DNA of 64,000 nt from Flaccisagitta enflata (GCA_965153355.1 OZ231126.1:10726001-10790000), one strand, 5' to 3'; positions 1,879-61,873 are shown, numbered from the stretch's first letter. Made by a program: numbers and translations. Notes: generated from the letters alone by a model not told the origin.

Positions 1879-2657
<779 letters not shown>

Positions 2658-3680: not shown

Positions 3681-3684
3681 AACG

Positions 3685-3716
<32 letters not shown>

Positions 3717-26603: not shown

Positions 26604-34993
<8,390 letters not shown>

Positions 34994-36406: not shown

Positions 36407-37897
36407 TGACACAAGTGTGACAGCTACAACAAGGAGCACCTCTGAATTGTAACGCTCCAGGAAAATGCTTATTTCTTTTGAATAGAATGGAAACAAGGTC
36501 ATTAGACCTAAGTCGCGTGCGTCGGCACTTTCAAAAAAGTCATGCAGACAGACAGACAAACTTTTTTTTTCATAAAGACATTTGAAAAAAGCTGTTTACT
36601 ACTCCAAGCTTCTTCTCCACTACTTAGAGACGTTTAAAACGCAATAAAAAGCCTTTAAAACGACTTTGTGACGGACCGACCGACGGACGGACAGACCGAC
36701 GGACCGACGGACGGACCGAAAAGTGGCTTATAGAGTCGCGTAGCACGCGACTAAAAATCCTTGAAAATCGGAGGAAAGGTCCTCCAACTAGTCCTTAATA
36801 CAATGGAAAAAGAAAAAAATGCTTAATGTTTGAGTAAAGATAGGCCTACGAAAAAAACTTTCTACCTAACTCATTTTTAGAAAAAAAATGACAGAAAAAT
36901 AAAGGGGAAGAGTATCATAATTCAAATTCATTTTTTGTCATCTTACAGTTGAAATATTGAATTCAAACTTTCTACACATATCAATGGATTGATAGTGATT
37001 GCTTACAAGCTATTGAATGACCCCCATTGACATTTTTTGATTGGTGAAACTTGCGCTTTGCTTGCTGGGACAGAATCGGGACAGGCCCTAATAGACCCTT
37101 CTACCCCTGTTTTGGACCCCATAGGGGCAGTCGGTGTGGCAAATATTGGTTGAGTATGGCACACCAGATAGTTAGGTATGTCACCCAACCTTTGTGACCT
37201 TATGCAATTCAGCAGAAGAAGCGATGACACTTCTACAATGACGGAGAGTCAGGGTTTCTCGCGCGCATGACGAAACTCGGAATCAGCCTTATACTATCTT
37301 TCAGCCAAAGAAAATGAAATAAGAAAAAACAGGTCGCCCAAGGGCAATATGTGGTCAGCGATACAAGAAAGAGCAACAAGCTCGACACGAACACGCATCA
37401 GTTTGTCGACGCAGTAAAGTTGACCTACGGAAGAACACCAACTATCATCGGGCCAACCAGCGACACAGTTCAAATGGAAGGAAAAGTTAGGAGCCTCCTA
37501 GAAGTCGAAGCTGAACTGACTTCGACTTTCGAATTGCCGGAAGAAACACCAACACCGAACTTTCAAGCAAAGAAATAGACTGCTCCGACGACAACCAGAC
37601 AGACGAGCCTAACTTACCAACCAATTACTTCGAGGATGATATCGACCTCTTAGAATCTCACTGTCTTACTTCGTCAACACGGATTGAGCCTTGCTCATCT
37701 TCATGTGCATCAATGAACAATGATTGCGATTACGAACACGAGCACGAGGACTCTATTTCATTTGCCCCGCTTATCACAGACAAAACATTTTTAACACTTA
37801 TTCAAGAAACTCGTTCATTTGTACAGAGTGAAACAGATTCTAACTCCGATCAGCCTGTTTCATCTCCAGCAAAAAAGAAAGCAAAGTCTTAAACATA

Positions 37898-38063: not shown

Positions 38064-41000
38064 TACTCGAAGTAATATAATTCAGAAAATGTCACAGACC
38101 GACAGACAATAAGATGGACAGACAAACCGACACAGCAAGGTGTAGAACAACATGCCCACAAATATTACAAGGCCGGATACACAACAACCCAATCATATAC
38201 AGTTGGATGCAAGCAGCAAGATAACAAGGCCGGATACACGGCTACCCCAGCTGCGTGTGAGTGGGCAGGAGCAGTGCTAGAAAAGGTCAACAGAGCATTT
38301 GGACCAACCAACCAACAGACCAACCGACCAACCGACCGACCGACCGACCGACCGACCGACCGATCGACTGACCGACCGACCGACCGACCGACCAACCAAC
38401 ATAGCAGGGCGGAGTCGCATAGCACACAACTAAAAATCGTTACAACTTTTCAAAATATTACAGACGAACCGACCGACCGACTGACACAGCAAAGTGTAGA
38501 GATGCGTGTCCCCACGACTAAAAACAAACCATAAATTCCAGTGACTTTGGTCTTTTTTTCTTGTGCATTAACGGGTGTTCGAATAAAAATTGGAGACAGT
38601 TTTTAATAGGTTAGCTTTTTTGTTAGGGCACCTAGGAAAAAACAATGAAATTACAAAAGATAGCGGATAACATAACTAACAGTTTGGTGAAAGAATCTTA
38701 ATTTTATCATGCACCATTGGAAAGAAAATCAAAATAAACAAATTCCTGGTGAAAAATTTCTACAGAGCCTGGGACAAAAGGCTAGTTTCCCTAGTCAGTG
38801 CTGCGCCAGTGTCTTGGAAGAAAACTAAATTGTCTTTTGTTTTCTTGCTGCAGCTTTTTTACAAAGGAGAGGAGGCTTAGAGCTTGGTAGTCAAAAGATT
38901 CATCTTACATGTCCTAAACATGTAACAAGTAATACCCTCTGAATCAAAGACACTTCCTCAATGCAATCTAACTTAGCCAAGCCAAGCCAAGCCAAACCAA
39001 GTCAAGCAAAGCCAATCCTTCCTGATCTAAGCCAAGCCCCCAGTCTATGTCAAGCTAATCAAGGTCATTTCACATTCAAAAAAAGTTAAGGCAAGCCCCT
39101 CTAAATCATCCATGTTGTCTTCAGACAAACAAAGCTAACCTTGGTTGTGATGAACATACTGCATCCCAGATTCCCAATTTTCTTACTTTTGCTAATGTAT
39201 TTTTGTGGTGAGCTAAAATTGTATAATGTAAAGATATAAGCGAAACATGTCAAAGATGAAATTTGATCGATAAGGTTTGATTGGAAACAAAGGCATCAAT
39301 TTTTGAATTAAGGATCTCTACTTTACAAACCAGATCTTACTCATAGCCTTGAAATTTTTCAGATTTTTCTTTTTGCTTTAGTATTTCATGTATTGTAATC
39401 TAATGTTTCCTGATTGACAAAATAGAAAAGATTGACTTTAATTCAGCTATACGGCGTTAAAATGGGCCAACAGCCATATGCAAATTAGGAGGTGCGCAGA
39501 TCATCCTCAACTGAAATGTTCTTAAAACATTAACTTTTAAGAATGAATATACAAACCAAATATACATGGCTGATTGAGTATATGCAACAAGACTTAATCT
39601 AACCCAGTTGCTTAAACCATGCAAGATTTTATAATTGAACCACATTTGAAACTATGCTGTTAACATGCATATTGTGCCTACCATCTTAGAGGAATGATTT
39701 GAATTATTGCCATTTAATTATTACAAACTTGGAACAAAAAACATGAAACGGCAACAAAGAGGGCTTGCAAATAAAAAAACAGCAATATGCAAATAAGAAA
39801 AAGCAAAAAAGAAAAGCACTTTACTCTGGCTGCTTGAAATAGACAAAATGGGATGATAATATTGTTGTGGATGAGAGGCGGGATTAAATCCCTTTGTTGG
39901 TGCAAATGCAACAGGCCATATTTGACTATTTTGTTTGTTGACTTCTTCCTCTCTTAGTCAGAAAATCCGATATTTGATTTTGTGCTTTTGATATAAATAT
40001 TTTAGTCACAACCATTTGGCTAAATGTATACCCTTTTACTTAAACATTTTAATGTAGCCCACATGTAAAGATAACATATTTGTCATTTCAAAAATTGACA
40101 ATTTTGGCTGCCAGCAGCATTGAGGGCAAAAACTTAGTGCCATGGATATGGAAACAGTAAGCTACCAATCTCAATGAAAGTAACTGCTTTATGCAAATAA
40201 AGTCAGAACATCACTACTCTTTTTTGTTTTCTCTTCAACAATGTACCATCTCATTTGCATATTGTAGCATCGACCTTCAGGGATGAAACCTTGGTAAAAT
40301 AAAGATTTTTTCTCCTTGTAATACAGGGCGGATATCATTTTGATAAAGGGTTAAGGTGACTGATATTTACAAAGAGATATTACAAGTGTTGTTAAACAAA
40401 TTTAAAGATGAATGTTAATCATTAAAGACAAACTCAATTGTGTTGGCCATTCATTTTTAAAAAATGCAAATACTTTTTGAATGGAAAGATCTTTTACCGG
40501 GACATCATGGATTTGAACTCACTTATATTTTTATTGCATATCCCTTTTTCAATATTTGACATGTTTAACTGCAGCTTTTATCAAGCATAAGATTTCATTG
40601 CAATGTACTGAATGAATAAAAGTAATAAGCAGTTACATAGCTCCGTTACTTTAGCATAACTGAACTCACTTTTGTACCTTGTGGATTAGGGGATTTAACC
40701 AATCTTACAGAAGTCAAATAGATGCTCTCATGATAGTCGTAAAATGATATTCTTGCTCCAAGGACATTGCATAATTGAAAAGACTGAGTTAGTTATTAGA
40801 CAAATGGGCCAATGATCACCATGGGTTGATTTAACGAACATATCAAAATGACAACAGGAGGCTATTTGACAGGTTATCATAGAGCTGCAATATGCTAATG
40901 AATTAATCGGTCCCTGGACTATGTCATTCAAAAAGCTGTTGTTGCATGAATAGACCTAAAAGAGTGATTGAACACATGACTGAGGAACAAATTGTTGATT

Positions 41001-43539
41001 CCATTCCACATATCTCAATTTATCATGCTTACTGGGTCAAAGGATCATCCAAATAGTTGACCATGTTAATTCTAAAGAGGTATCCCAAGAGAGAATTTCA
41101 CTGTTTGACCATGAAAAATTCATCTCTTTTTTGTCATGTAAAGTCTTAGAATTTTATTGTTTTTTTAACATATAATCAAACAGTAAAGAGTCAAATGGAT
41201 GCCACTACAGTTGCTGTCAACTGATCTAGTTACTTCAAGAACATTGTGCACTAATTGTTTTTACATCAATTGTTAGACTAGTGGACCAGTTCCCTCTACG
41301 AGATGAAATAACCTACCTCTAAAACTGACATTTAGATGGCTACTTATCAGGTACTAAGAGAGCTGCAATATGCTAATGAGATTAACGGTCTCTCCTCATT
41401 CAGTGTTATCAATGCGTTCAATGGTTGATAGGAGAGACTAGAGGAGAACTAGTTGGTTCATGAGTTCTGATGCACAACAGGCTGGATCTGGATGGCTCAT
41501 ATGCTACTTGCCATAAGAGCATTTTTTGATTACTGGAGCATCAAGATGGAATGTGAAAACACAATCTTTAGACAATCTTTTCTCTATTTGGCAGCCTATA
41601 AGAATCAAAATGGTAGGCCCTTTGAAGACAGTCAAATGTTGAGAAAGATGATCAAAATAGCGATCAAACTGTAAATAGTCAAGTGGATGCCACCATAATT
41701 GTTGTTAAATGATCTCATTGCTTCAAGGACATTGCACATATCAAAAAAGTGTCATGACCATTGAAATGATGGACCAATGATCTACTTGGCATGAACGAAA
41801 GTGCCTATAAAATGGACATTTAGGAGACTATCTATTAGGTTACCATAGCGTAACAATATGCTAATTATATCCTGTTCTCAGTCTTTTAAAGGACTCTAGT
41901 TGCTTGGAAAAAGCTTTATTTAAAAGGCTGTATTTACAATTCATCCATTTTTGAGGATGTAAGCAATGCTAATAAAACACTTGTCAATTGATGTAAAAGC
42001 TCCAAGGTCATGAAAGATATTCTAACGCCCGTAGGTCAGGCAAACCCTCTTCAGAAATTGTTTCAAACAGCAGTTTTGGTTCTAACAAGCCCAAGAGGGC
42101 AACAGTCGCGTGCGTCTGGATATGACAAACAAAAGATTTCCTCCTCCAAGGCTGTGCGATATGTCAATATGTCGATACAATATCGATACGATATCAATAT
42201 TGGTACAATGTCGATACAATACAATACCCAAAAATACCCAAAAATACCCAGAAGTACCCAAAAATACCCAAAAATACCTAGAAATACCCAAAAATACCCA
42301 AAAATCATCAGAATTAGTCAAAAATATCTAAAAATATCTGAAAGAACCCTAAAGTACCCTAAGTACCTAGAATAACTTAAGTACCCTGAAGTACTCTGAA
42401 GTACCCTAAAGTACCCTAAAGTACCCTGAAATACCCAAGAGTACCTTAGATTACCCTTAAAGACCCTAAAAAGTCATAATTTTAACAATGTGACGGACGG
42501 ACGGACGGACCTACCGACCGACCGACCGACCGACCGACCGACACGGTAAGGTGTAGAGTCGCGTGCACGCGACTAAAAACAAATCATTAATGAATCAAAA
42601 ACCTACTTGTGTTTTGATTTAAAGTTCCTAAGTTTTTCTTCAGGTTACCCAACATTCAAATAAAAATTTTTTATACATAGATCCTTTAGCTGATATGATT
42701 TTACTATTTACACATCAGAGGATAAAATGATTGAAATTACATAATGAGAAGTATCCCCTGACATGAAAAAAAAAAGAAAGATGTACATCATAAACCAACT
42801 TGTCAGTTCATGGATTTCAAAATACAATATTTTTGTAGTCAACAGCAAATAACATCTTACTTCAAGAAAGGATAGCTAATCCACTACAATATGCAAATGA
42901 GATTGACACTGATTCAATCTCCTTAACCTTAGGAAAGTCAAAAATTTTCCTAACAAAACAATATTGTGTATTCATAAATCCAATATCTTCAGTTGCAAAC
43001 TTGCTGTGTGGGTCCATCAGTCCAATTGTCAATTTGTACCTTTTTTAAAATGTGTATTTTGCTATATTGCCCCTGACCACCCATCCACAATTGGGTGACT
43101 GAGTCCATGGCCATGTTGGTTTATGATTAAAGGCAAAAAAATGATTGGCTGCATCTACAAAGTTTGATGAAATCATTTGCATATTGCAGAAACTGACTTG
43201 GCCTGATCAACATATTGATCCATATTTTGCATTTGACTTTTTTTCTTTTCAATAATTAATCATGACTCTTGATGATATATTAATCGCTTAAAACTTTTTT
43301 ATCTGCCTCTTAAATTGGAAGCAAGAAACTATCTGTCAATCAATCTCACTCATTGAAAACAGTTTTAAAGCTTCATCTTAAATAACATGAAACCAAGGGA
43401 AAAGTTTGCAGGGGAGGGTAGAAGAGGTAAAGATTGTTTTATGTACCATTTCTTTCTTTTCAAAGAAAACATAGTCTTAGCTTAGGAAAGAAAGTAGAGC
43501 TTAAACGCATAGCAAGGGTTTAGAATTGCAAGTAATGTT

Positions 43540-44000
43540 TAAGAATAGAAATGTGATTAGGTCTAGGGGTTGAAAATGATGGTAAAGGTGTACAGTTTAG
43601 GGCTTGTGGGAAAGGGGTTGGGATAAGGAGTAGGTTTTGGTGCAGGGTTGAGTAAGGGGTAGGGTTGGAGTTAAGGGAAGGGGTGGGGAAAGGGATAGTA
43701 GTTGAGTTGGGAGTTAGGGATAGGGGCGGAGTTAGGGGAAGGGGCAGGGTTAGGGGTGGGGTTAGGGGTGGAGTAAGGGGTAGAGGTGGAGTTAGGGGTA
43801 GGATTAGGTGAGCTAAGGGTAAGGGGTGGAGGTTGAGTATGGGGTCAAAGATCCGTGGTGGGGGTCGAGTCAAGGGTAGGAGTGGGGTAAGGGGTAGGGG
43901 TGGGGTAGAGGTAAGGGCTAGTCTAGGGTTAGGGCTGAGTCTAAAGGTAGGGGTGAGTCCAGGGGTGTGTCTGAAGGTAGGGGATAGGGCACATGACTGG
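43540..44000 (+). repeat. Degenerate telomere-like G-rich (TTAGGG-like) tract
   Basis: GTTAGGG/GTAGGG/GTTGGG hexamers. Perfect TTAGGG runs occur at 44270-44305 and 45427-45438, and CCCTAA at 51496-51507. Confidence 0.75.
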
Positions 44001-44031
44001 GGTAGCGGCATGTCCAGCCTTTTCATCCAAC

Positions 44032-44136
<105 letters not shown>

Positions 44137-44339
44137 GTCTCTCTCTGTCTCTCTCTCTCTCTATCTCTCTCTCTCTGACAAAGAATCATTGCCATCGGTT
44201 CGTCTATTCAGTGTCGCGAATCCTGAGAAGGATTTTTTGTGAACATGAGCTTGATGAAGGAGAGGATGGTTAGGGTTAGGGTTAGAGTTAGGGTTAGGGT
44301 TAGGGTCCATCGCCCAAAATTTTCTAAACATCATTTTAA

Positions 44340-47300
44340 CTTATTCTGTCTATTTTTGTTCATGTCTCTTGCCTCCTCATGCCTGCTCATGTCTCCTTAT
44401 GTCTCCTTGTGTTTCTTCATGCCTCCTTGTCTCTCTTCATGTCTCCTCATGTTTGGTCAAGTCTCCTCATGTCTCTTTGTGTCCATTCACACCTGCTTAT
44501 ATCTCCTTATTCCTCTTCATGTCTCCCATGTCTCCATGTCTCTTAAAGTTTATTCATGCCCAGGCCTGATTTTAGAGCGAGCCCGCGAGCCCGATGCCCT
44601 CTATTTTGCTCTCGGGCTCTCATGTTTTGCAAGCTCTGAGCCCGGTGGGCTCTCTCTCATTGGGATGGATTCAAAGCGCTGATTGAGAAAAATATTTGGA
44701 AAATAAGCAGGTCTTGAGTCGTTATTTGATTTTTTCATGAATTGAATCATTGTAGTTGTGACTAATATATCATTACATCATAAAACCAGTGGCTGTTGTT
44801 ACAAATTTAGGCTGATATAATGGTAAAATTTGGCACAACGTTTTTTTCCGGGCTCATGCTCTTCCTGTCGGGCTCTGTCAAATTGTGGGGAGCGAGCCCG
44901 ACTGGCTCAGTCAAAGAAATCACTAAAATCAGGCCTGTTCATGCCCCCTCATCTTTCCTCATGTATCCTCATGTCTCATGTCTTTTCATGTCTCTTCATA
45001 TTTCCTTATGTTTCCCATCTCCTCATGTCTCTTTATGTCTCCTTTTGAATCTTCATGTCTCTTCATGTCTCCTCATTTCTTTTCATGTCTTTTCATGTGT
45101 CTTCATGTCTCTTCATGTCTCTTCATGTCTCTTCATGTCTCCTCATGTCTCTTCATGTCTCTTCATATTTTCATGTCTCTTGATGGCTTTTCTTGTCTTT
45201 TTATGTTTCCCATGTCTTCTCCTTTCTATTCATGTCTCCAGATTTCCTTTTTTGTCTTTTCATGTCTCTTTTCATAAAACGACATGGAGGGTCATGAAAA
45301 AAGATGGAGAGACATGAGAAGACAAGAGAAAACATGAAAAGACATGAAGAGACATAAAACAACAGTTTTGCAAATCCTGCGAAGGATTTTTGTGAACATG
45401 AAATTGATGAAGGAGAGGATGGTAAGGTTAGGGTTAGGGTAAGGGTCCATAGCCTGAAATTTTCTAAACACCATTTCTAACATATTCTGTCTATTTCTGT
45501 TCATGTCTCTTGCCTCCTCATGCCTACTCATGTCTCCTCATGTCTCCTTGTGTTTCTTCATGTTTCCTCATGTCTCCTTGTGTCTCTTCATGTCTCCTCA
45601 TATCTGGTCATGTCTCCTCATGACTCTTTGTATCTCCTCATGCCTGCAAATATCTCCTTATTGCTCTTCATGTCTCCCATGTCTTCACGTCTCTTTAAGT
45701 CTATTCATGCCCCCTCATCTCTCCTCATGTATCCTCATGTCTCATGTCTTTTCATGTCTTATCATGTTCCTCCATATTTCCCCATGTTTTTTATTTCACT
45801 TTATGTCTCCTCAAGTCTTTTCATGTCTCCGCATGACTTTTCCTGTCTCTTCATCTCTTCACATGTCTCTCCAAGTTTCCTCATATTTATTCATATTTCA
45901 TCATGTCTTCTCATGTCTCCTCATGTCTCCTCATGTCTTTTCATGTCTCCTCATGTCTCTTTATGTTTCATCCATTCATTTCATGTGTCTTCAAGTCCCG
46001 TCATGTCTCTTGTAGTCTTCTCATGTTCTTCATGTCTCTTCATGTCGCCTTATGTCTCCTCATGTCTCCTCATGTCCTTTTATGTCTCCTCCATTCTTTT
46101 CATGTGTCTTCATGTCCCATCATGTCTCTTGTAGTCTCCTTATGTTTCCTGAAGTCTGTTCGTGTCTTCTCATATTTTTTCTAGTCTTTTCATCTCTCCT
46201 CAAGTCTCCTTATGTTTCCTGAAGTCTTTTCATGTCTCCTCATTTCTTTTCATGTCTTTTCATGTGTCCTTATGTCTCTTCATGTCTCTTCATATTTTTC
46301 ATGTCTCTTCATGTCTTTTCATTTCTTTTCATGTCTCTCATGTCTCTTCATGTCTCTTCATGTCTGTTCTTGTCTTCTCATGTCTTCTCCTGTCAATTCA
46401 TGTCTCCTAATTTTCTTTTATGTCTTTTCATTTCTCTTCATGTCTCTTCATAAAAATACATGGAGGAACATGAAAAGAGATGGAGTGACATGAGAAGACA
46501 AACGGAGACATGAAAAGACATGAAAAGACATGAAGAGACATAAGATGACATGAAAAGACATGAAGAGTCATGAAGAGATATAAACAGACAGGAGGAGATA
46601 TGAAAAGACTTGGAAAGACCTTAGGAGACATGAAGAGACATGAAAGACATAAACAGACATGAGAAGACATAAAAAGAAATAAGGAGACATGGATAGACAT
46701 AAGAAGACATGAAAGACATGAAAAAACAAGAAAAGACATGAAAAGACATGAAAGAACATGAAAAGACATGAAGAGACATGAAGAGACATGAAAAAACTTA
46801 AAGAGACATGAAAAATATGAAGAGACATGAAGAAACATGAAGAAACATGAAGAGACATGAAGAGACATGAGGAGACATGAAGACACATGAAAAGACATAA
46901 AAAGAAATAAGGAGACATGAAGAGACATCAGGAAACATGAGAAGATATGAGGAGACATGAGAAGACATGAAAAGATTTGAAAAGACATGAGGAGACATGA
47001 AGAGACATGAAGAGACATGAAGAGACATGAAGAGACATGAAGAAACATGAGCAGACTACAAGAGACATGAGAGGACATGAAGACACACGAAAAGACATGA
47101 AGAGACATGAGAAGACATGAGCAGACATGAAGAGACATGAAGAGACATAAAAAGATATGAAAAGACATTATACTTCATGGAAAGACAGGAGAGACATGAA
47201 AACACTTGAGGACACATAAGTAGACATGAAGAGACATGATGAGACACAAAGTGATATAAAAGACATGAAAAGACATGAAAAGTCATAAGAAATGAGGAGA

Positions 47301-47495
47301 CATAAAAAAACATGAGAAGACATGAAGCGACTTGAAAAGAAAGAAAGAGACATGAAAATACATGAAAAAACATGAGGAGACATGAATAATGATGAGGAGA
47401 CATGAAGAGACCTCAGAAGACATGAGAAGACATGAAGAGACATGAGAAGACATGAAGAGACATGAGAAGACATGAAGAAACATGAGAAGACATAG
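44340..47495. repeat. 10-bp CATGTCTC(C/T)T minisatellite that switches orientation at ~45280 and ~46455; resumes at 50760-51440
   Basis: CATGTCTCTT units to the left of the axis and GAGACATGAA units to the right. Confidence 0.95.
44561..44937. mobile_element. hAT-type MITE
   Basis: Perfect 15-bp TIR CAGGCCTGATTTTAG, exact 8-bp TSD TTCATGCC and GAGCCCG subterminal repeats. The paralogous site at ~45704 is empty. Confidence 0.92.
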
Positions 47496-47498
47496 AGA

Positions 47499-48331
47499 TA
47501 GTATGCACCGTTGTAGCAATAATGTGAAAGTTACCATGCCATCTCGATATGTTATGAAGCCTTTGGACCTTTGTGATGGTGTTTGAAAAAAGAAAAAGTA
47601 ATATTTCTATCGAATAGCAAATTTACTTTTCATTTAAAGATGACATGTCAAAGGCTAATTTTCGCTCGAATTTTTACCCCATTTTTGCTCGACCCTCAGA
47701 TTCATGAGAAAACCTATTAAGTCATTCTTTCATCTTAAGGGCAATAATGACATAAATTGTTACAATCAGGGAAAGAGAGAATACGATTATGTGATAAAAT
47801 GGCAAACAAGATTATAAAATACATTTTTCACACGCCACAATGTCAAAATTATCGAAAACCGCAATATGCAAATGAGCTTATCAAGCGAACCTGAGAGCGA
47901 CTCGTAACTAGTCTAATTTCATTATTCCCAAGAGGGCAACAGTCGCATGTTTGTTTTACAATGACACACACGACTGAAAAATTACATGATGATAGTTTTG
48001 AATATGATCTTATAACAGATATTATAATTACAACATATGATATGTATGTATACAATACATAGACAGTCGTCAATCAGGTGGGGAAAGTAAACCGCCACAA
48101 GTCAGTAATTCAAATCATTCTTCTCTTGTAACATTAAGTTATAACATTTTCAAATGCGTTCTCGAATCTTGGTAAGAAGCTTTGTCCGTCCGTCTGTCCG
48201 TCCGTCCGTCCGTCCGTCCGTCCGTCCGTCCGTCCGTCCGTCCGTCCGTCCGTCCGTCTATCCGTTCGTTCGTCCGTCCGTCGCATTTGTCTTGTGTTAA
48301 ATCGAGCAAATCGGGCAAAATCGCGCAAGAG

Positions 48332-48402
<71 letters not shown>

Positions 48403-50754
48403 GTGCGCGATGACAAGCCCAGTCACAGGACGAGAGCGCAAAGGACGCATCTATAGGTTGAATTTCGGCCTTGTTCCTTCCATTCCTCCCTTCCCTCCTT
48501 CCTCCTTTATTTTCTCCCTTCATTTCTTTCCTTCCTCCCTTTTGATCCAAACTTCCTTAAATTAGAATTATTCTCTTTTATTTTTCCTCCCTGCCTTCCT
48601 TCCATGACTATTCCTTCCATTACTACCCTCCTCCCTTCCTTCTATTCCTATCTTCAATTCCTTCATTCATTCTTACCTTCCATTACTCCTTTCTATTCCG
48701 ACCTTGCTTCCATTCCTTCCGTCCTTCCCTCCTTTCATTGTTTAGCTTTTGAAACAACCTCTATACCCAATGTTTATCCAAAAAAGTTCAAAATTTGGGA
48801 CGGACTGACAGGCAAAGATTGCATATAAAGGCATCATTAGATTGAATATATGTGACGATTTTATAAGACAAAATCTAAACAGGTGAAAAGGAATAAGAAT
48901 AGTGTGAATGCCTGAAAAAGCGATATTAAGGCAGTGATGTGAAGGGCAGCAAATACAATGATTTACGGAGAGTTTTAAAAACTGCCCGCATATGAAACAA
49001 GAACCATATGCGTATATTCTATCTCAAAAAAAAAAATCTTTACTCGATGAAAATAAGTTCAATTATTGACGTAGAAATAGATATAAATCGATGATTTGTC
49101 CAATTAGTGCTTACTGGACATCCAGAGCAAGAACTTTTTGTTCACATAAAAAAGTCATTCAAGAATCGCACATGGTCAATGGTACCCGATGCCTTGCTTG
49201 GAATGATCAGCAAAAGAAGTGGGGTGAGAGCAGAGCAATGGCCCCAAAGGACCGATGTCTTGTAGGACACAGGGGTTAATTTCCATACATCCTGAGGGGC
49301 AATTTATGATTTTCAAAGGGAGTTTTACATTTTTTAAAAATTTCTTATCAGTTTTCTGTTATTCAATGGGAATTTTCTTTTTTTTTTATTTTTTCTTTAT
49401 CAATTTTCCATATCATCCAATTGGATTTTCAAATTTTTTTCATTTTTTTGTCAATTTTCCAAGTTACTCAATAAGAAATGAGCATTTTTCTATTTTTTGG
49501 AATAATTTCCATGTTATTCAATGGGAAGTTAGCATTTAGTCATTTTTCCATGTTATTCAATGGGAACTTGAGAATTGAGAAGCTTTGGGGGATGTACAAA
49601 TGGACAGACGGACAAACGTAAGGATGGATGGATGTAAGGAAATTCACCCCTGTGGCCTACAGGGCATCGGCCCTTTGGGGCCGCTGCTAAAAAAAGGATT
49701 CATTCAGAGAATATCGACAACTTTATCAAAGCAATTCTTAACATGACCTCCCCATACACGGCATGATTGGGGAGACATCTCATGGTATTCTACCATGACC
49801 TGTCGCCACACCTTCCGCGGCCGAGACCGCCCAACCAACACACTGGAGAAGAAACAAGGCCGGATACACGGCTACCCCAGTCACGTGCGGGTGGGCAGGG
49901 GTCATATTCAAGGTCAGTGGAGCATTTGAGCAGGAGCGGTATAGCCAAAAAGCCCATAAAGGCCGAAAAGTAAAGTGTGACGGAAGGACCGACGGACGGA
50001 AGGACGGACGGACGGACCGACAAAGCGGGGTGTAGAGTCGCGTAGCACGCGACTAAAAAGAAGAAGAAGTAGAAGAAGAGGAAGAAGAGGAAGAAGGGAA
50101 GGTCGATGAAAGGGAATGTACGAAAGAGCATACCATGTATCATTGTCATTGCTGCGTCATATTGAAGATGTTGAAGAAGAAGAAGAATAAGAAGAAGGAA
50201 GAAGAAGAGAAGAAGAAGAAGAAGAAGAAGAAGAAGTGAAGAAGAAGAAGAAGAGATGGAGAAGAAGGGAAGGAAGAAGGGAAGAGAGAAGAAGAAAAGA
50301 TAATTAGCGTTGGGTCTCAATAGCGTCGCAGACAGGGGGGAGGCAGGGAAATTGCGTATTTTGATACTATCACTTGAGGATCACAGACAGACTGATGGAC
50401 CAAATGGGCAGATGGACAATGCCTATCATAGAGTCAAGTCTGCGACTGTAAAAAAGGAGCGTGCAATACATAGTGACTAGCTTACTAATGCCACACAAAG
50501 TACTATTCAATAACCAAAAAAATTACCAAATTTGCATGTGCATGCTCTCGTTAAGGTTCGATCTAGCGGGAAATCTGTGTCATCGGAGGCTCGAAATGAC
50601 GTCGAAAAGACAAAAAAGTAGTATTTTTAAAATCAAAAGTGAATTTGCTAAAATTCATCTAAATGAGTTGAAACTTTACAAATATCTTCTAAACACCCTC
50701 TAGTGCTGTAAACATATCGAGATGGGTCATAACATAGCTTTACGGGCCATACTA
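47499..50754. mobile_element. Non-autonomous TIR element with apparent 7-bp TSD, inserted in the GAGACATGAA satellite
   Basis: TAGTATG..CCGT / ACGG..CATACTA termini, inverted blocks CCATCTCGATATGTT and TAGCAAATT.ACTTTT, and ATAGAGA on both flanks. Confidence 0.65.
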
Positions 50755-51602
50755 ATAGAGAGACGTGAAAAGACATAAGAAGACATGAAAAACATAAAGA
50801 GACATGAGGAAACATGAGGAGACATAAGGAGACATGAAGGGACATGAAAAGAAATAAAACAACATAAAGAGACATGAAAACACATGAAGAGACATGGGGA
50901 GACAAGAGGAGACAAGAGGAGACATGGAAGTTTATGTGGAGACATAAATCATGAAAACAGATGTGGAGACATAAGGAGACGTGAAATGACATGAAGAGAC
51001 ATAAACAGTAATGAATAGACATAAAGGGATAAGAAGAGACATAAGGAGACATTAGGACACATGGAAAGACATAAAGATCCCTTCATCACTTACAATCTTT
51101 CCCTGTAGTCTTCTGAGGAAAAGGTGTATGCAATCCTACACAGCTAAATGCACCTAGGCTACACACAGACTTTGATTTTCTAAGATCAAAAAAATTCCAT
51201 TTCTTTTTCTCTCCCTTTCTCTTTCTTCAAGACAACAGCCTGGCCTCACATGCTTGACTCGATCAAGAGAGAGGGAGACATGAAGAGGAATAAGGAGATA
51301 TTAGCAGGTGTGAGGAGATACCAAGAGACATGACCAGACATAACCAGACATGAGGAGACATGAAGAGAGACAAGGAGACATGAAGAATTACAAGAAAACA
51401 TAAGGAGACATGAGTAGGCATAAGGAGACAAGAGACATGAACAGAAATTGACAAAATATGTTAGAAATGGTGTTTAGAAAATTTTGGACTATGGACCCTA
51501 ACCCTAACCCTACCGTCCTCTCCTTCATCATGTTCATGTTCACAAAAAATCTATCTCAGGATTAGTGAAACTGAAAAGACGAACCGATGGCGATGATTCT
51601 TT

Positions 51603-51668
<66 letters not shown>

Positions 51669-53309
51669 TCCTGTAGAACACAGGGGGGAATTTCCAGACG
51701 TCCGTCCGTCCGTCCGTCCATCCTTCCGTCCTTCCGTCCTTCCCTTGTTGGCTATCAAGACCTAAGATTTGCCCTCCCAGCCCTCGATTTAGCCTTTGAG
51801 GCCTTTAATCAGCCTTCCAGGCTTATAATCAGTCCATTCAGCCTCAAATCCGACCTCAAGACCTCAAATCTGACCTCCAGACCTTCAATTAGCCTCTAAA
51901 GCATCAAAACAGCCCTTCATGGTTCATATATGCCCTCAAAACCTCAAATCTGCTCTCCAAGCCTTAATTCTGCCCTCCAGCCTTCAAATATGCCCTCAGT
52001 GGCCTAAATTAGTCATCTAAGGCCTGAATTATGCCCCCTCAGGACGTCTGGAAATTGCCCCCTGTGTTCTACAGAACATCGGCCCTTTGGGGCTACTGCC
52101 CTGCTCTCACTCCACTTCATCACTGGATCACTCCCAGCAGGGCATCGGGTACCGCTGACCATGTGCGATCCTTGGATGACTAGTTCTAAACTCACCCCAC
52201 CCATGGGACTAAACCCTACCCTTGAAATCAACTCTCAAAACCTAGGCTTAATTGCATCTTTTATGCCTTTTGAATATCTGAACTGAAACTCCTCAAAAGA
52301 TTCCTTATTTGAGAATTTGTTTTCAATGTTAATCCTTTGACATTCTAATACAAGATAAGCCCCTTATTCCTGCCCCCCTAAAAAACCTACATGTTGATAA
52401 CGAAAGTTGAAGATGAAGGTCATGAATATTCCTTTTGGATGAGTGAGATTGGTTGACAGACAGTGTCCTCCCACCAGAACAAGACATGAAACAGAAAGAT
52501 ACTTGAGAGCTGGACATCTTCAAGAGTCAAGATTTATGATAGAATACAACAAATTCACATATGAAATGTGGCTGAAGATTTTGATCAGGAGAAGATAATA
52601 TCTGCAATATGCAAATGATTTCATGGGTTTTTAAAGGTGTAGCCAATCTTCCTCTTGACCTGTAGTTTTACAAAAACGTGCTCTCCAAAACCAAAAATGT
52701 TTGATTGATTGATAAACATCATCAAAAAGATTCTGCCTATACAGTTCTGCATCCATTGACTAAAATTTTTGCCAAATCCAAATCAGGGCCATTTTTGTAA
52801 GAGGAAAACAAGATTTTTCCATTAGTTAGTACTTTGACTTGCTTCCGGCCAGATTCAATATCATTTGCATATTGTAGAGTGCAATTAGACCTCTCTTTTT
52901 ATATTGTTTAATCAATTTTTCTTTTCTTATTACTTCAGAAATGCTTTTGATTGAAATCCATGAACTATAAATTTGATCCATATTTTGTTCATGTCAGAAG
53001 ATATCTTTTGTGATGTAGATTTAATAGTTTCATTCATTGGGATGTAAAAGTATTTGTAAAAATAAAATATTCCAGAGCAATATTCTCCTTAGCTGCATTG
53101 GTCATACTTCATCTCAATTATTGGGGCTCACTGCAACCTAATCTTATATCCTTAACTATATCTTTGCCCTTCCCTTTAGACATATCTGAAAACCTGTCAA
53201 TACCCTTTTGACCCATTCATGAGCAACCTTGCCATTTTAAAATGAGAACTAACAGACAGAGAACCGTCCATTTGTCTTCCACCCATTTTTCAGACATTTT
53301 ATGCAACTA

Positions 53310-56300
53310 AAACAGTAAAAAAGACTTAGAAGGGCACTGTCAATCTCATTTGCATATAGCAGCACTACAGTGACCAAGAAAAAATCTCCCTGAATGCCCT
53401 TTTTTTTCAGGCATTGATTGGTCTCTAGTAGATCATTGGTCCATCAGTCTAACAATCAAGTCCATCTCTTGATGTCTGCAACGCTTAAGAGTCATTCTGT
53501 AATTGGACCCCTATCATATTGGAATTCATTTTGCTCTTAACAGTCTCTTAACAGTCTGTCACTCCTCAAAGAGTGTTAGGCTAACTTAGATAACCTAATA
53601 ACCAATCTTTGCGTTTCTGAAAAAGTTTAATCTAGTTCCTCCATTCAGATTTTCTGACATACCAGTCTATGCCCTCTACACCCATTGACTCACGAGCCAT
53701 CTGACCAGTTGTTAGTGAGAGTTAGGAGATAGAGAACCTTCCACTTGTTCCCCCCTTTTTTAGTCACTGACACGCGACTCTACACCTTGCTGTGTCGGTC
53801 GGTAGGTCGGTCGGTTGGTAGGTCACATTTTTGAATTCCAAGCGGTTTTCGCATTACTGCTCCTGCCCAACCGTCCGCGACTGGATTGCCGTGTATCTGG
53901 CCTTGTTTTCAACCAATTTTGCAGCCAAATCAGTATGAAACACTAAGAGGGGACACTGTCAATCCTATTTGCATATTGCAGCTCTACAGTAACGAAGACC
54001 AAACTTCCTGAATGTCATTTTTCGAAGGTGCATGAATCAGCATTTTGTAGATCATTAGTCCATCAGTCTGACAGTCAAGTCCATTTCTTGATATCTGCAA
54101 AGCCTCAGAGCCATTCCATGTTCTGACCACTATCTTTTATGACTTGATTTTGTTCCTTACAGTCTTACAAAGACCTAGAAAATCCCATAAACTTGATCAT
54201 GTATAGAGATAAATAATACTATGATTAAAATCTTCCCATTAATAAAGTAAATTCCCTTCACCCTTTTTGACTCACGAGTCAAGGGCGATCTGGTTGGCTT
54301 TTAACAAAACTAACAGATGGAGACCTATTCATTTGTCTTCCTTTCTTTTTTTTTAATGATTCATGCAGTTGAAACAGTATAAATATTCAGTAGGGAAACT
54401 GTCAATCTCATTTGCATATTGCAGCTCTATAGTAATCTAATAAAAACATCCTGAATATCATTTCTTTCAGGGGCAATAAATGATATCTAGTAGATCATTG
54501 GTCTAATAATCCAATACGTAGGTCTATCTCTTGATTTCAGCAATGCCTAAGAGTCCTCACATAATTGGACCATTTTTATGTAGAAATTCATTTTGCTCCA
54601 AATAATCTTACAGAGACCAAAGAAATAACTTTCCTTGCTTAGTAATGACATGTGTGTTAACTTTTCTCCCCCTCAATGAATCATTGACTTGCAAGCAATT
54701 TGGCAAAATTTGAAAGAGAATTAATTGTCTTCTACCCTTTTTTTCAACACATCATGCAGCCAAAACCGTATAAAAGACTCAAAGGGACACTGTCAATCTT
54801 ATTTGCATATTGCAGTTCTATAGTGACCATAAAACAAGGCCGGATACATGGGTACCCTAGTCGCGTGTGGGTGGGCAGGAGCCGAAAAAGTAAAAAGGGG
54901 ACCGACCGACAATCTGACCGACCAACCGACCGACCAATTAACATAGCGGGTGTAGAGTCGCGTAGCATGCGACTAAAAACTTCCTAAATGACTTATTTTT
55001 AGGCGCTTAAATTGGCCTTCAGTCAATAATTAGTTCATCAGTCTAACAGTCAAATTCATCTCTTGATATCTGCAATACCTAAGAGCCATTGCATAATTTG
55101 AGCACTATCATTTTGGAATTCATTTTGCTCCTTAAAGTCAAACAAACACCTAAAATCAGATTTCTTAACAAACCAGTCTATGCTTTTTCACCAATTGACT
55201 AACGAGCCATCTGACCAGTTGTTAGGGATGATTAAGAGATAGACAACCTTCCTCTTGTTTTCCACACCTTTTTTAGTCGCATGCTTGCAACTCTACAACC
55301 TGCTTTGTCCATCTGTCCGTGGATGGGTTGGTCCCAATTTCACTATTTTTAATGATTTTATTTCTTTGACCTCACTGCTCCTGCCTAAATGGTCTAGTGA
55401 CCTCAGATATGGCCCCTGCCCACCCACATACAACTTCGATAGCCTTTCATGCAGCTGAAACAGTATGAAAGATTTAGTAGGGACACTGCCTATCTCATTT
55501 GCATATTGCAGCTCTATAGCGACCTAATAAAAACTTCCTGAATGTCTTCTTTTTTCAGGGGCATTGATTGGTCTTTACTAGATCATTGGTCTATTAATCC
55601 AATACATAGGTCCATATCTTGACTTCAGCAATGTCTAAGAGTTATCTCATATCTGGACCACTTTTATAATGAGATTCATTTTGCTCCTAACAGTTTTACA
55701 GAGTCCCAAAAAACAATGTCCGACTTTGCTTACCATGGTTTATTATGACGTGAATGTTATCTCAGTTCTTCCCCTAATTAACCATTGACTGGCAAGCAAT
55801 CTGGCAAAATTAGAATGAGAATCAAGAAAGGGAGATTCATTCAATTGTCTTCTATCCCTTCTTGGGCAATGGCCCAAAAGGTGATGAACTCCTGTAGAAC
55901 ACAGAGGGACTTTTGTTTGTCCATTCGTTTCGTTTGTCCCCCTCAGGCCCTCTCAGGCTTGAAATCTGCCCTCTCAGGCCTGAAATCTGCCTTCTCAGGC
56001 CTAAAATCTGCCCTCTCAGGCCTGAAATCTGCCTTCTCAGGCCTAAAATCTTCCCTCTCAGGCCTGAAGTCTGCCCTCTCAGATCTTAAATCTGCCCTGT
56101 TGAGCCTGAAATATGCTCTCTCAGGCCTGGAATCTGCCCTCTCAGAATCAAGGCTTGAAACGGCAGATTTCAGGCCTGAGAGTGTAGATTTCAGGCCTGA
56201 GTGAGCAGATTAAAGGCCTGATAGGGCCTGGGGGAAATGGATGGTCGGATGGACAAAAGAAGGAACAAAAGTCCTCCTGTGTTCGACAGGACTTTGTCCT

Positions 56301-56670
56301 CTTTGGGGCTACTGCCCTACTTCCTTTTATTCCAATTCACAACTAAGCAAAGCAGGGCAACGGGTATTGCTGACCACATATTGTCCTTGGGCGATAATGT
56401 CTTATGAAGCCAGAATAGTACAAACGGCTCAGAAGGTACACTTTCAATCTAATTTGCATTTTGCAGCTCTATAGTGACCACAAAAAAACTTCCTGAATGT
56501 CATTTTTTTCAGGTGCATAGGTCAGCCTTCAGTAGATCAATAGTATATCAGTCTAACAGTTAAGTCAATCTCTTGATATATGCAATGCCTAAGAGCTATT
56601 CCATGATTTGACCACTACTATATTGGAACTCATTCTGCTCCTTGCAGTCTTAACAAATACCTAAAAAATC
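53310..56670. repeat. Six diverged ~400-600-bp tandem units, each containing CTCATTTGCATATTGCAGCTCTA
   Basis: Cores at 53348, 53967, 54410, 54801, 55497 and 56452. Three inverted homologues lie at ~40770-40920, 41240-41395 and 41720-41870. Confidence 0.85.
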
Positions 56671-58890
56671 ACCCAAAATTGCATAAGGATAAGGCATTTC
56701 TGATTGTTTAATTTAGTACTTCTCTTGGCGGTCCTAACAAACCTGTCTACGCCTAATGTACCCAGTTTATCTTAGCCATTCTATGCAATGTGAGACAGAG
56801 AAAGATAGAGTGACCTATGACCACAGCTGCATAATTAGGTGCGACAAAGCACCTCTAGAACTGGCTGTGTCCAACAGTTGGTCATTCATTTGGTCGGTTG
56901 ATTGGTAGGTCATTCATTTGATGATCCACACGTCGCACCCTACTTGGCCTTGTGTATGTTCTTTGAATTCATCAACAAGTAGAGCGACAGAAACACACAG
57001 CAACGTCATTATGCTAATGAGATTCTCATATCATTTTGATTCCACTGTTGGAGAAATGGAACTAAATCTAATTTGCATATTGCTGCATGTGTTTCAACCT
57101 GCTATGGTTGTCTTTTTTTCTTAGTAGGGGTTATTTGGTCATGTCATATGGTCATTGAAAGTAAGCAGGAAAAAAGTTTTCTCACTGCAGTAATTATCAT
57201 TTTCATCAGTGACCTCAGGCAAAATCCTTATTCATCACAATGGTAAACATGAAGCTTGTTTGATAAGTCAGATCATATTCAATCAAGGACACGCAATAGC
57301 GAAAGAATTCATCACCATGCTGTTTCAGTCTGTCTCACTCTGACTACCTATATGTCTAACCATCCAGTCATTGATCAGTCCCTCTTCATTATTTCTAAGA
57401 TTTTCTACTCTTGTTATTTTTTCGATTTAGTGCTATAGGTCACTGTAAGGCGCGCAAGTGTGAAATACTGTTGTACTGTAGTTTTGTAATACAGCCCCTG
57501 TCTTACTGATTTGGGCTTGATCATTTTCACAGGAGCATTCACTATTTTTTTTGCCATGGTATAATATAAATAATCATCACATTTGAAGTGTAAGCCTTGA
57601 TTACTCATACTTTGATAGCCATATTTTAATAGTATTTTTAATGAGGTTTTTATCCTTTGACAATATACTTAACCAGCAGGTTGAAACAAGCGTAGATCAA
57701 GCTAATGAAAATCATAAAATTGAAATGAACCCTTTAACCAAAAAAAAAAAAAGATGCAGTTCGGGTCAAGTGTTCGTTCCACACAGCACAGAGCCCAAAC
57801 TCACATTTTGATTACTTTTTTTTGTTTTACATCACTGAAGATTCAAAAAGAAAATTTCAGCAATATGTGAATAAGGATTGATACAAGCTGCCGTAAATGT
57901 CTGATTCAAACTTTGAGAGTAAGTAAAAAAAAATCATTTGCATACTGCAGTCATGTCAATTTTTAAAGGCTTGGCATCTAGCATCATAAATGAGAGATAT
58001 TCTTATATGCTTAAACAATTTTTGCAATACAAACTTTCAGCCGTTTGATAATTGAGACATTTGCTCTTGTGCTACTTCTTTGTTACCTTCAACATTACCT
58101 TTGTCGTACAAGACATAAATGAAATCAATTTCAGAGAACAAGTCAATTTCTGGGCAATGAGAATGTTTTTATGGCTCATGTAGTTCATCACAGAATTTTT
58201 TTTGAATGATTTTGTCACTTCAAATTTAAAAGTATCAGATTCATTGATGAAATATTGAAAAATATTTCTGTCACTTAATCAAAGCAAATCACAAAAAAGG
58301 CTTCACTCATACTCATACTTTTGTTCTTTTGTTTTCATTGCCTAGTTTAGAGGGCAAACTCAAGATGGCATCAAACTACAGCAAATTTTGCTTTGCCGTT
58401 CTACTGCTGCTGTCCCTGCAGTCTTTGACCTCTCACAAGACCTTTCAAGTGCAGAACAGAGGTTTCAAATGCCTTTTGTTCTTTTTTCAGGAAAAATGAG
58501 AAGAGACTGAGAAAAAAGACAAGTGGTGGCCCTCTTTAGTCTGATTTAGACATGAAAAAAAGGAACGACGCCATTGTTTATTTTGGTTGTTTTGAAAGAA
58601 GTTAAGGCATAAAACAACTCGTTTTTTGTCTTAGATTAAAGAGGAGACTAAGACATTCCTTTTGGTCTACCAAACATGCATGTTGTGCTTTCCTAAATGT
58701 GTTTTATTCATGATTTTCTGAATCTTTCATTTCCAACTGTTTATCTGTTTGTTTACACTAGTAAACAGAGACCATGAGCCATGACATGTTTAACTTAAGC
58801 TCTATGAACCACGATCTACGTCCAGAAAAAAATTGCACGTCTCTAGCTGCTCTGGTTTAGATTTCAATTTTTATTCGAACACCCGTTAAG

Positions 58891-59043
58891 AAGCGAGAGA
58901 AGATTGTCGACATTCAGGCTGCGGTGAATGTGGCAGATTCTGACGGAGATCGAAGAGTCGATTTCGCCGAATGGAGGAAAGAATTGAAGAAAAGAGGATA
59001 CGAAGAAGAAGAAATCGCGCAAGTTTTTGACAAATATGACAAG
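58891..59043 (+). CDS. PKD2: Polycystin-2 (TRPP/PKD2 family) exon, C-terminal EF-hand region
   Basis: 153-nt AG..GT exon KREKIVDIQAAVNVADSDGDRRVDFAEWRKELKKRGYEEEEIAQVFDKYDK matches the PKD2 tail pattern (..DFDE.RQ.LK..G....EIEA.F.KYD). Orthologue versus PKD2-like paralogue is unresolved. Confidence 0.85.
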
Positions 59044-59331
59044 GTGAATTTTAGAAAAATCAACGCATATAACAGCCGACTCCCGTAATTACGGATGCCA
59101 ATGTACTGACAAGTCAAAGGAGAAAATTCCGGTTATGCCAATATTTTTCAATAAAAGCCTAATTAATAACAACTCATAGTAGTAATGTTTTATATTCATG
59201 AAATAGAATAGATAAAATGCTTTACTTTGGTCTGCCTTTGTGTGTGTGCGTATGTGTGCGTGTGTGCGCATCTTCTTCTTGTTTTTTATTGCAGGATGGT
59301 GACAAAGTGTTGAGTGTGTGTGTGTGTGTGT

Positions 59332-59628: not shown

Positions 59629-59684
59629 CGTATGTGTGTGTGCGCAGCTTTGTGTGCATCTTCTTCTTACATTTTCCATTGCAG

Positions 59685-59829
59685 GATGGTGACAAAGTGT
59701 TGAGCGCGGAAGAGAGAAGAAATATGTTGGAAGATCTGCAGGACAAAAAAGATGACATTGACAATAAACAAAAACAATTAGAGGAGCAACAAACTCACCA
59801 AGAAGAACTCCAAAAACAAAACAGTCGAG
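59685..59829 (+). CDS. PKD2: Polycystin-2 exon completing the EF-hand loop and following helix
   Basis: TTGCAG|DGDKVLSAEERRNMLEDLQDKKDDIDNKQKQLEEQQ..SR G|GTAAAT. The phase-0 join gives the EF loop DKDGDKVLSAEE. Confidence 0.85.
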
Positions 59830-61173: not shown

Positions 61174-61873
61174 GTTCCGGATCAACAAAGGCGTGGGACC
61201 TAAGCTGAGGCTGGGGGCGCAGGGCCCCTAACCCCTCTTTGCCCTATTGTGTTACTCTTTTATATTTCTTTACGTTTTGTAATAACAAAACCAGTTGCTT
61301 AAATTTTATCTGGCAATACGTGTCCTGTCTGCTAAAAGTGATATATCTAAGGGCAAAAATAAAAAACAACCAAATATGACATTTCCATGACAGTTAAGCA
61401 TATCGTGGAAAATTCAAAGCAAACATTCCTGGCTATTTTTGCTGCAAATTTTGCGATTATGTCATCAACATTATTTTTTGTAAATTCATGCTTGATAGAC
61501 AAAAGATTAAGATTGTTCAAACAATCTTGACTGATAGATGTGCGTTATTCATTTTTTATGGGTTTTATTTTGGAGAAAGATCGTTCACAACTGCAATTGG
61601 TTACCATCATGGAAAGGTAGATGCAAAGCGCTATTTCAATGTTTGGGAAAGTGGATTGGAGTTCGTTCTGCCTCAAAAACACGTATTCACTGACATCTTG
61701 ACTTTTTTAGCTTTCTTTCTCTTTCTTTCTTTCTTTTTTTCTTTTTTTCTTTTTTTCTTTCTCTTTTTCTTTCCCCATTTCTTTCAGGGGTGGGTGCCTC
61801 TAGGGCGTGCGGGGCCCCCTGAGGTGTGGGGCCCTAAGCTGTAGCTTTTTTAGCCTATTGGTTGATCCGGCAC
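61174..61873. mobile_element. hAT-like MITE with eroded ends
   Basis: GTTCCGGATCAAC / GTTGATCCGGCAC inverted ends, GGGCCCC subterminal motifs and an AT-rich core. No TSD. Confidence 0.55.

Follow-up and report, generated by a model that had tools for sequence, protein, structure and literature searches.

Short protein-binding motifs reiterated within repetitive DNA are known from several systems. In alpha-satellite monomers, the CENP-B box (roughly 17 bp) binds protein and is conserved while the monomers diverge. DNA transposons such as Foldback, Galileo/P, Tetris, hAT, and CACTA carry subterminal transposase-binding repeats or long repetitive inverted ends. Among host factors, Oct-1 binds ATGCAAAT and ATGCTAAT, the latter in the herpesvirus OCTA/TAATGARAT element; POU factors tolerate A or T at position 5 of the octamer, and in POU matrices derived from chromatin immunoprecipitation (ChIP) the octamer is preceded by TAT and followed by GA(G), strings that our literature search did not confirm. 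The closest described kind of repeat is the intronic "fuzzy tandem repeat" with perfect p53 response elements, which has been described in mouse Rbl2, Ncoa1, and Klhl26 as rapidly evolving (PMC3386156). Here, we describe a locus in a 64,000-nucleotide stretch of the Flaccisagitta enflata genome (GCA_965153355.1 OZ231126.1:10726001-10790000), called the window below, with positions counted from its first letter. In this locus, about 20 copies of an octamer-containing motif are arrayed in mirror orientation across a large palindrome next to exons of the polycystin-2 gene (PKD2). From the sequence, we tentatively favor the explanation that a host POU factor binds the motifs and that selection has kept these predicted sites in an element that was built from repeats and lies upstream of the polycystin-2 EF-hand exon.

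The locus resembles each of these systems in part. Like the CENP-B-box satellites, it has a conserved box amid diverging tandem monomers, but here nine monomers occur at an apparently single-copy locus in or beside a gene, and no sign of a centromere is present. In place of the high-copy tandem array typical of such satellites, the window has 3 + 6 units, and the left arm of the palindrome is at baseline sequencing depth. The likeness to the fuzzy tandem repeats consists of diverged tandem units, an intact factor site in each, and a cluster of like sites built by the repeat; the differences are that the factor there is p53, whereas the units here are long (about 450-480 bp), form a palindrome, and are apparently old (PMC3386156). 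What sets the locus apart from both the fuzzy repeats and the CENP-B box is that its units are long and form a palindrome, that it appears to be old, and that its motif is of the POU type and occurs in a marine invertebrate. For invertebrates, a study of Caenorhabditis elegans reports that the octamer and the POU factor CEH-6 regulate excretory-cell genes, which indicates that the octamer-POU pairing works in these animals and that the flanks of functional octamers are non-random; those sites are single and promoter-proximal with merely AT-rich flanks, whereas the word found here is fixed over 20-24 bp (PMC2841177). Our literature search, outside which most subscription journals and repeat databases lay, found no octamer array of this kind and none tied to a transposon or an echinoderm repeat, and for the motif with its flanks it returned only primers and probes.

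Octamer enrichment and motif-specific conservation

The octamer ATGCWAAT occurs 28 times in the window, against 5.65 expected (standard deviation 2.58, largest 14) from 100 dinucleotide-preserving shuffles of the window, none of which reached 28. The interval 39478-57943 (18.5 kb) contains 24 exact copies, 19 of ATGCAAAT and 5 of ATGCTAAT, and the rest of the window (∼45.5 kb) contains 4, which is the chance level. An earlier note on this DNA, made from the sequence alone, had listed 22 octamers, usually with characteristic flanks, and had placed ATGCTAATGAGAT at 41370 and 57011. All 22 coordinates proved to be exact ATGCWAAT matches, the flanks agreed with that description, and ATGCTAATGAGAT was found at both positions; two further octamers in the interval, at 41966 (+) and 50530 (-), had not been listed. 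Longer forms of the motif are concentrated even more sharply. The 14-mer CAATATGCWAATGA, with at most two mismatches, has 21 matches in the window against 1.33 expected, 20 of them in the region and the other at 16548, and the 21-mer GCAATATGCWAATGAGATTGA, with at most three mismatches, has 12 matches against 0 expected, all 12 within the region. About 3-4 of the 24 octamers (40464, 41966, 50530, and perhaps 40191) are probably background, because the motif flanks are missing. The strands are distributed as 9+/2- in the left arm and 2+/9- in the right arm (Fisher p = 0.009), in agreement with the mostly forward-left and reverse-right orientation described in the earlier note. However, this p-value mostly restates the inverted duplication presented below, because tandem copies are not independent, and the mirror orientation of the motifs results from that duplication and is no separate feature.

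A longer motif, CTGCAATATGCWAATGAGATTGA, has the octamer as its core. The motif word spans 14-24 bp, CTGCAATATGC(A/T)AATGAGATTGA, with the octamer as its hardest core. In the tandem units, the conserved block reads AGAGCTGCAATATGCAAATGAGAT, and at the 15 sites outside the units, the information extends from about -7 to +5 around the octamer, as C.gCAAT-ATGCAAAT-gAg.T. The sole variation inside the octamer is A/T at position 5, and it follows the arms: every left unit has ATGCTAAT, and every right unit has ATGCAAAT. The match to the Oct/POU octamer claimed in the earlier note therefore stands, with exact octamers and internal variation at this position only, as in known Oct/POU sites (ATGCAAAT, and the OCTA/TAATGARAT variant ATGCTAATGARAT). 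The flanks seen here are CAAT-octamer-GAG. Their ATAT...GA(G) pattern may resemble natural Oct-1 sites and the ChIP-derived POU matrices; one natural Oct-1 site in print contains ATATGCAAATGA, and Oct-1 reporter primers for the mouse Irf3 promoter contain CCATATGCAAATGA. The likeness is one of sequence match, and two differences accompany it: about 20 copies occur in one 18 kb palindrome here, against one or two per promoter or enhancer at known sites, and conservation here runs 5-8 bp past the POU footprint on each side. Three other factor readings of the flanks, each compared with its consensus sequence, were rejected. A PBX-MEIS-like flank (GATTGACAG) is present in only 4 of the 9 units, a Sox-Oct composite would require the Sox core in the opposite orientation, and a heptamer in the flanks that resembles a recombination signal occurs without a matching nonamer.

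The motif stands out even when no motif is assumed. In a k-mer census of both arms made with no prior motif, motif k-mers came top at K = 8, 10, and 12 (17, 13, and 11 spaced copies), and the best motif-unrelated k-mer had 8, 5, and 5 copies, respectively. In the nine-unit alignment, the mean column pairwise identity is 0.94 for the octamer, 0.87-0.90 for the 14-mer, and 0.62 outside the motif. The motif window ranks first in this alignment at widths of 8, 14, and 24 columns, a ranking that used the nine units only; the other, 19-site alignment excluded 40191, 40464, 41966, 50530, and 57011. A neutral Jukes-Cantor simulation, run on a tree built from the non-motif columns and ignoring rate variation among sites, attained the identity seen over 8 columns in 2 of 20,000 runs and that seen over 14 columns in 0 of 20,000. 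Across the 21 matches to the 14-mer, all 15 mismatches are confined to the 6 flanking positions, with the octamer left untouched ((6/13)^15 = 9e-6), and among the motif matches in the window there is no copy in which the flanks were kept and the octamer was lost. A 258-position profile of the unit (nhmmer) recovered the nine units, 11 motif-limited matches in the window, and one match in a metagenome contig (L001). These motif-limited matches cover model positions of about 189-225, which correspond to the motif; outside the nine units, only two weak matches (E 0.02 and 0.27) touch other parts of the unit, and the profile found no unit without the motif.

The octamer is kept in 9 of 9 units at 62% background identity, and the mirrored motif pairs 42887/52861 and 43173/52605 are identical at 21/22 and 24/24 bases, against a background of 50-70%. 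These results suggest that the motif, and not the carrier repeat, is being kept, and the sequence evidence for constraint is strong. The earlier note had called the octamers the best-preserved part of otherwise diverged units, a description upheld by the first rank of the motif window, and had proposed comparing the motif with neighboring positions in a unit alignment. In that comparison the motif is far better conserved, and plain co-amplification fails in the profile, the alignment, and the simulation. A related account holds that the motif has no function and simply decays more slowly than the rest of a co-amplified repeat, whether by chance, because of a local mutational cold spot, or through gene conversion over short tracts. 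All copies could indeed share one ancestor, and the mirrored arms contain other conserved islands of 16-23 bp, near the chance expectation at 65-70% identity. We nevertheless regard this account as highly improbable, given that the k-mer census, the unit profile, the alignment, the distribution of mismatches, and the simulation all single out the motif and that stand-alone copies occur without any other trace of the unit. Furthermore, we know of no process that confines gene conversion tracts to 14-24 bp over 20 copies.

Palindrome, tandem units, and fold-back center

The carrier of the motif is a 16-18 kb mirror-image repeat, an inverted duplication with its axis near 47,890 (midpoints of the matched blocks, about 47,877-47,900). 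Demonstrable homology in the left arm extends over 40715-44527 (+), with inverted matches to 56680-51273, and the right arm, its mirror, occupies 51273-56680 (-). Conservation between the arms is highest at the center and lowest at the ends. The blocks 44116-44527 and 51666-51273 are 85-91% identical in inverted orientation, 42702-43382 and 53052-52407 about 60%, and the left units (40715-41903) and right units (53273-56680) 60-66%. No homology was found outside 40,715 and 56,680: the alignment of 38600-40700 with the reverse complement of 56700-58900 scores 17, whereas 20 shuffles reach up to 19, and this best local match is the motif itself. A sensitive blastn search of the outer flanks returned unrelated repeat matches only.

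Nine of the motifs belong to tandem units that recur roughly every 450-480 bp and are conserved over about 258 bp. The left arm has three units on the plus strand: L1 (40697-40951; motif 40888-40901, ATGCTAAT; nhmmer E 2e-54), L2 (41174-41421; motif 41366-41379, ATGCTAATGAGAT; E 4e-49), and L3 (41662-41908; motif 41854-41867, ATGCTAAT; E 1e-53). The right arm has six on the minus strand: R1 (53296-53550; motif 53346-53359; E 3e-70), R2 (53917-54170; motif 53965-53978; E 2e-67), R3 (54359-54613; motif 54408-54421, with the exact 21-mer consensus at 0 mismatches; E 2e-63), R4 (54751-55139; motif 54799-54812), R5 (55444-55701; motif 55495-55508; E 2e-70), and R6 (56401-56652; motif 56450-56463; E 9e-69). 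R4 is split by an inserted GACC-tailed repeat, and nhmmer reports it in two pieces, 54751-54836 and 54973-55139. Unit identity is 0.61-0.65 within the left arm, 0.68-0.83 within the right arm, and 0.50-0.61 between the arms, and a neighbor-joining tree splits the units by arm. We infer from this clustering that tandem amplification or homogenization took place separately in each arm, after the inversion.

The remaining motifs stand alone or in pairs. On the outer left, two motifs lie at 39474-39487 (+; 14-mer match with two flank mismatches, in surroundings that have no detectable partner in the right flank) and 39783-39796 (+; 14-mer match with one mismatch), and the outermost motif on the right lies at 57934-57947 (-; 14-mer match with one mismatch). 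A convergent pair at 40191-40264, formed by the octamer at 40191-40198 (+) and the motif at 40251-40264 (-) with starts 62 bp apart, mirrors a second pair at 57007-57082, in which ATGCTAATGAGAT at 57011 (+) and the motif at 57069-57082 (-) have starts 60 bp apart. Nearer the center, the first mirrored pair mentioned above consists of 42887-42900 (+) and 52861-52874 (-), with a background of roughly 55%, and the second of 43173-43186 (-) and 52605-52618 (+), with a background of roughly 70%. A further stand-alone motif near the palindrome midpoint (47862-47875, +) is matched by the 14-mer, the 21-mer, and the unit profile.

Contigs from a DNA sequencing run of the same organism (X1) join right-arm units in register (53410-56510), for example from 54828 to 56482 (skipping 1653) and from 52189 to 54751 (skipping 2561), at roughly half the baseline depth. 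These joints suggest unit-number variants of the array. Another X1 contig has 8 extra bases directly after the L3 octamer (41867-41870), which implies that L3 in the window has a small deletion in the 3' flank of the motif relative to another haplotype.

The inner part of the palindrome is a 10-bp minisatellite (TCATGTCTCT, then its complement) at 44373-47493 with its own fold-back center; its arrays 44373-46451 and 46468-47493 are mutually inverted about ∼46460. On the other side, a 10-bp minisatellite (AGAGACATGA) at 50759-51447 mirrors the left array. The inverted arms of short tandem repeats that characterize Foldback-type elements are thus present at the center only, and not in the motif-bearing arms. 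In run X1, the minisatellite bins 44528-45193 and 46526-47191 have about 20-50x the baseline depth and the other minisatellite bins 1-10x, and the raised depth in the two bins implies that similar arrays exist elsewhere in the genome. Beside the minisatellite, runs of TTAGGG-type (telomere-like) hexamers occur in mirrored positions (44268-44306, 45410-45445, and about 51495-51530), and the left side carries a second copy of a ∼1.1 kb block composed of a unique stretch, hexamers, and minisatellite.

This fold-back center raises the possibility that the motif is the reiterated site of a transposon-encoded protein, in which case the arms would be the terminal regions, very long and internally repetitive, of a giant DNA transposon of a fold-back-like type. 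In common with elements of the Foldback, Galileo, hAT, and CACTA type, the palindrome repeats a short motif, both directly and inverted, in two otherwise dissimilar arms, and it has as its core a classic fold-back minisatellite, two bins of which have raised depth. In addition, a fragment of the hAT transposase C-terminal dimerization domain (PF05699, E 1e-6) lies at 61548-61706 (-). However, that fragment lies beyond the palindrome and has no further transposase sequence around it, and 0 of 152 open reading frames (ORFs) of at least 45 aa in 39300-56740 match a transposase family in Pfam. The sub-threshold Pfam matches in this interval are four low-complexity ones (Atrophin-1, DUF3915), the coiled-coil family CC_BshC (42839-43045), and FliD_N (55782-56201). 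No terminal inverted repeats were found, the outer-end alignment being no better than shuffles, and no termini were identified, because the outer ends have no homology beyond the motif. The motif-bearing regions measure 4-5 kb per side, and the arms are most diverged on the outside, with conservation peaking at the center, the opposite of what functional termini would show.

Sequencing depth bears on the copy number of the left arm. The summed depth of the left-arm units in run X1 is 2,369-3,289, against 3,670-3,736 in the PKD2 exon-flank bins and 10^5 to 3x10^6 in bins with known repeats. Since the depth of the left arm is the same as that of the exon flank, the left arm is no high-copy element at 92% likeness or above, the threshold of the depth measurement, below which older copies are invisible. 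The right-arm bins have depth inflated by inserted repeats. Moreover, 9 of 9 units amplified in place keep the motif at 62% identity, unlike what would be expected of a dead insertion.

Exact 21-mer scans matched one metagenome contig (L001), 0 viral contigs, and nothing in 596 Gb of prokaryotic genomes. L001 is 1,071 bp long and matches the consensus over 23 bases, and its likeness to the units is confined to the motif. Because it has another repeat in common with the window (at 31386-31462, 76% identity) as well as a GTCC microsatellite of like kind, L001 comes from a related genome. The occurrence of the 23-mer at another locus, on a contig linked to the window by a second repeat family, is a point in favor of a transposon-encoded protein, and because of L001 and the fold-back center we retain this explanation, though as an unlikely one. 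The contig also carries a second octamer variant, AATGCTAATTGA, at 441-452, about 70 bp downstream of the 23-mer and in the same orientation, and it contains tandem units of ∼150 bp with GTCC microsatellites like those of the window.

The earlier note had offered two readings, transposase-binding subterminal sites or a mobile cluster of host POU-factor sites next to PKD2 exons. Of these, the POU-type match, the motif-specific conservation, and the adjacent PKD2 exons are supported. Subterminal transposase sites and mobility are not supported: neither termini nor a transposase family among the 152 ORFs was found, the left-arm depth equals that of the exon flank, and the arms have decayed in place.

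Candidate binding proteins and a possible model

The explanation we tentatively favor, host POU-factor sites kept by selection, may be set out as follows. A stretch with the motif would have been duplicated in inverted orientation around the fold-back minisatellite, with the axis near 47,890, and the minisatellite at the center may have seeded this duplication. One motif-bearing segment would then have been amplified in tandem in each arm, giving three units on the left and six on the right. Subsequent drift would have reduced the arms to 50-70% identity and the units to 62%, while the motif stayed 87-94% identical. Purifying selection, which we favor because the motif has outlasted this drift in all nine units and in both mirrored pairs, would keep the sites of a host protein while the locus-specific palindrome decays. 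Arms decayed to 50-70% around an intact motif fit constraint by the host and not a dead transposon, whose sites would be expected to decay together with the scaffold. The most likely binder is predicted to be a host POU (Oct-type) factor, and the cluster of about 20 like sites may act as a regulatory or chromatin-organizing element in the probable, very long polycystin-2 intron. In a more specific version of this model, which is rather doubtful, tandem and inverted duplication would long ago have built about 20 POU-type composite sites at this one locus, and purifying selection would have kept them while the scaffold decayed; the array would serve the polycystin-2 gene as a large regulatory or architectural element, with site clusters that face each other like paired loop anchors.

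Several points weigh against host POU-factor sites. The main one is that the occurrence of an exact 23-mer at the unrelated L001 fits descent from a dispersed repeat better than a factor site that evolved independently. The conserved block of 20-24 bp exceeds the POU footprint, and the flanks CTGCA (upstream) and GAGATTGA (downstream) are informative even at stand-alone sites; the outermost flanks, CTGCA and ATTGA, are beyond what the footprint explains. The identity of the arms is very uneven (50% to 92%), which makes the age of the palindrome uncertain, and the uniform rates of the neutral simulation belong here as well. The placement in an intron is deduced from the fact that the upstream PKD2 exons are missing from the window and from nothing else. 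Finally, the arms have essentially no depth in a polyA RNA run (X14), but because the PKD2 exon bin is empty as well and only about 6% of the run is covered, this run says nothing on arm transcription.

The extent of the motif leads to the next option after a POU factor, namely that the sites are selected for another host protein that reads the whole 20-24 bp, such as an architectural or multi-zinc-finger protein or a CENP-B-type domesticated transposase. In that case, the resemblance to the octamer would be a partial match or a coincidence. The information from about -7 to +5, present also at the 15 non-unit sites, the exact 23-mer at an unrelated locus in L001, and the facing orientation of the site clusters of the two arms are all consistent with such a protein. 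However, constraint is strongest at precisely the eight octamer positions, the sole variable position is one that POU factors tolerate, and no candidate protein is known. We therefore rank this option below a POU factor and consider it improbable.

The units also have features of a promoter. If the motif were the upstream element of a small repeated transcription unit, with an octamer and CCAAT-type promoter, transcription would converge on the center and could yield, for example, the precursor of a non-coding or small RNA. The units do have, about 95 bp upstream of the octamer, another conserved block that contains CCAAT (GGACCAATGATCTAC), some of them also have a TATA-like stretch about 30 bp downstream of the octamer, and the arm motifs all point to the center. 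But a good TATA-like sequence is present in only 2 of the 9 units, and the conservation of the unit lies mostly upstream of the motif, with no conserved transcribed segment after it. A search of Rfam at gathering thresholds found no RNA family and no snRNA in the arms, which are also too diverged for double-stranded RNA. The empty arms in the polyA run count as weak evidence in the same direction. Metatranscriptome contigs from two runs (X11 and X13) cover arm and flank equally at a depth of 3-8, and they may be DNA. Small shares are also present in runs labeled marine metagenome, from which we infer no habitat. Overall, a repeated promoter appears very unlikely. Intronic RNA pairing between the arms was also considered and was rejected, as octamer position 5, with T on the left and A on the right, shows no co-variation.

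If the host sites are functional, the locus would show, with a clarity unusual for a natural case, selection that acts on a binding motif rather than on the repeat carrying it, and the roughly 20 copies would be internal replicates and the decayed scaffold a built-in neutral control. It would then provide a test bed for repeat-built site clusters, for POU targets outside vertebrates, and for the regulation of the polycystin-2 gene. Under the array model with facing clusters, a repeat in a marine invertebrate would have been turned into a durable regulatory module, possibly one in which orientation matters. Should the motif be that of a transposon protein, it would reveal the site recognized in a giant element of the fold-back type.

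Polycystin-2 exons and other features of the window

The last motif lies about 950 bp upstream of the polycystin-2 EF-hand exon, consistent with the nearness to PKD2 exons reported earlier. This exon (58888-59043, +) corresponds to residues 134-185 of a database protein (P0002; tblastn 87% identity, E 4e-23), and the next exon (59682-59828, +) corresponds to residues 185-233 (69% identity, E 3e-15). P0002 has 413 aa with PKD_channel and EF-hand domains and is 87% identical to the ORF in the window; as a lead only, its look-up in a protein atlas returned polycystin-2 clusters with scores of 0.83 at most, among which Chordata and Echinodermata were the commonest phyla. The ORF at 58861-59085 has a Pfam EF-hand, and its best solved relative is the PDB chain 2mhh_A, "Polycystic kidney disease protein 2" (E 2e-12). 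Residues 1-133 of P0002 were not found by tblastn in the 58.9 kb upstream, and the palindrome most likely lies within a very long polycystin-2 intron, as judged from the sequence. Two weak tblastn matches (E 0.2-0.3) to one and the same pore-region segment of P0002 are separated by about 900 bp, at 7620-7709 and 8530-8631 (+). Both contain an in-frame stop, and they represent chance matches or else decayed pieces of duplicated exons.

A short dispersed element, in which a conserved tail comes after a (GACC)n or (GACG)n tract, occurs in both orientations and has very high depth in the DNA run. Its copies are at 36670-36757, 38302-38525, 42492-42582, 49850-50060, 53757-53938, 54833-54980, and 55270-55359. 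The copy at 49856-50521 is the only part examined that has polyA RNA reads (depth about 33 per strand). The sole Rfam or ARAGORN match in the window is a tRNA-Ile (anticodon TAT) at 510-582 (-). At the opposite end, 62001-64000 has a GC content of 0.595, against about 0.40 before it, with strong skew and open frames that have no Pfam match.

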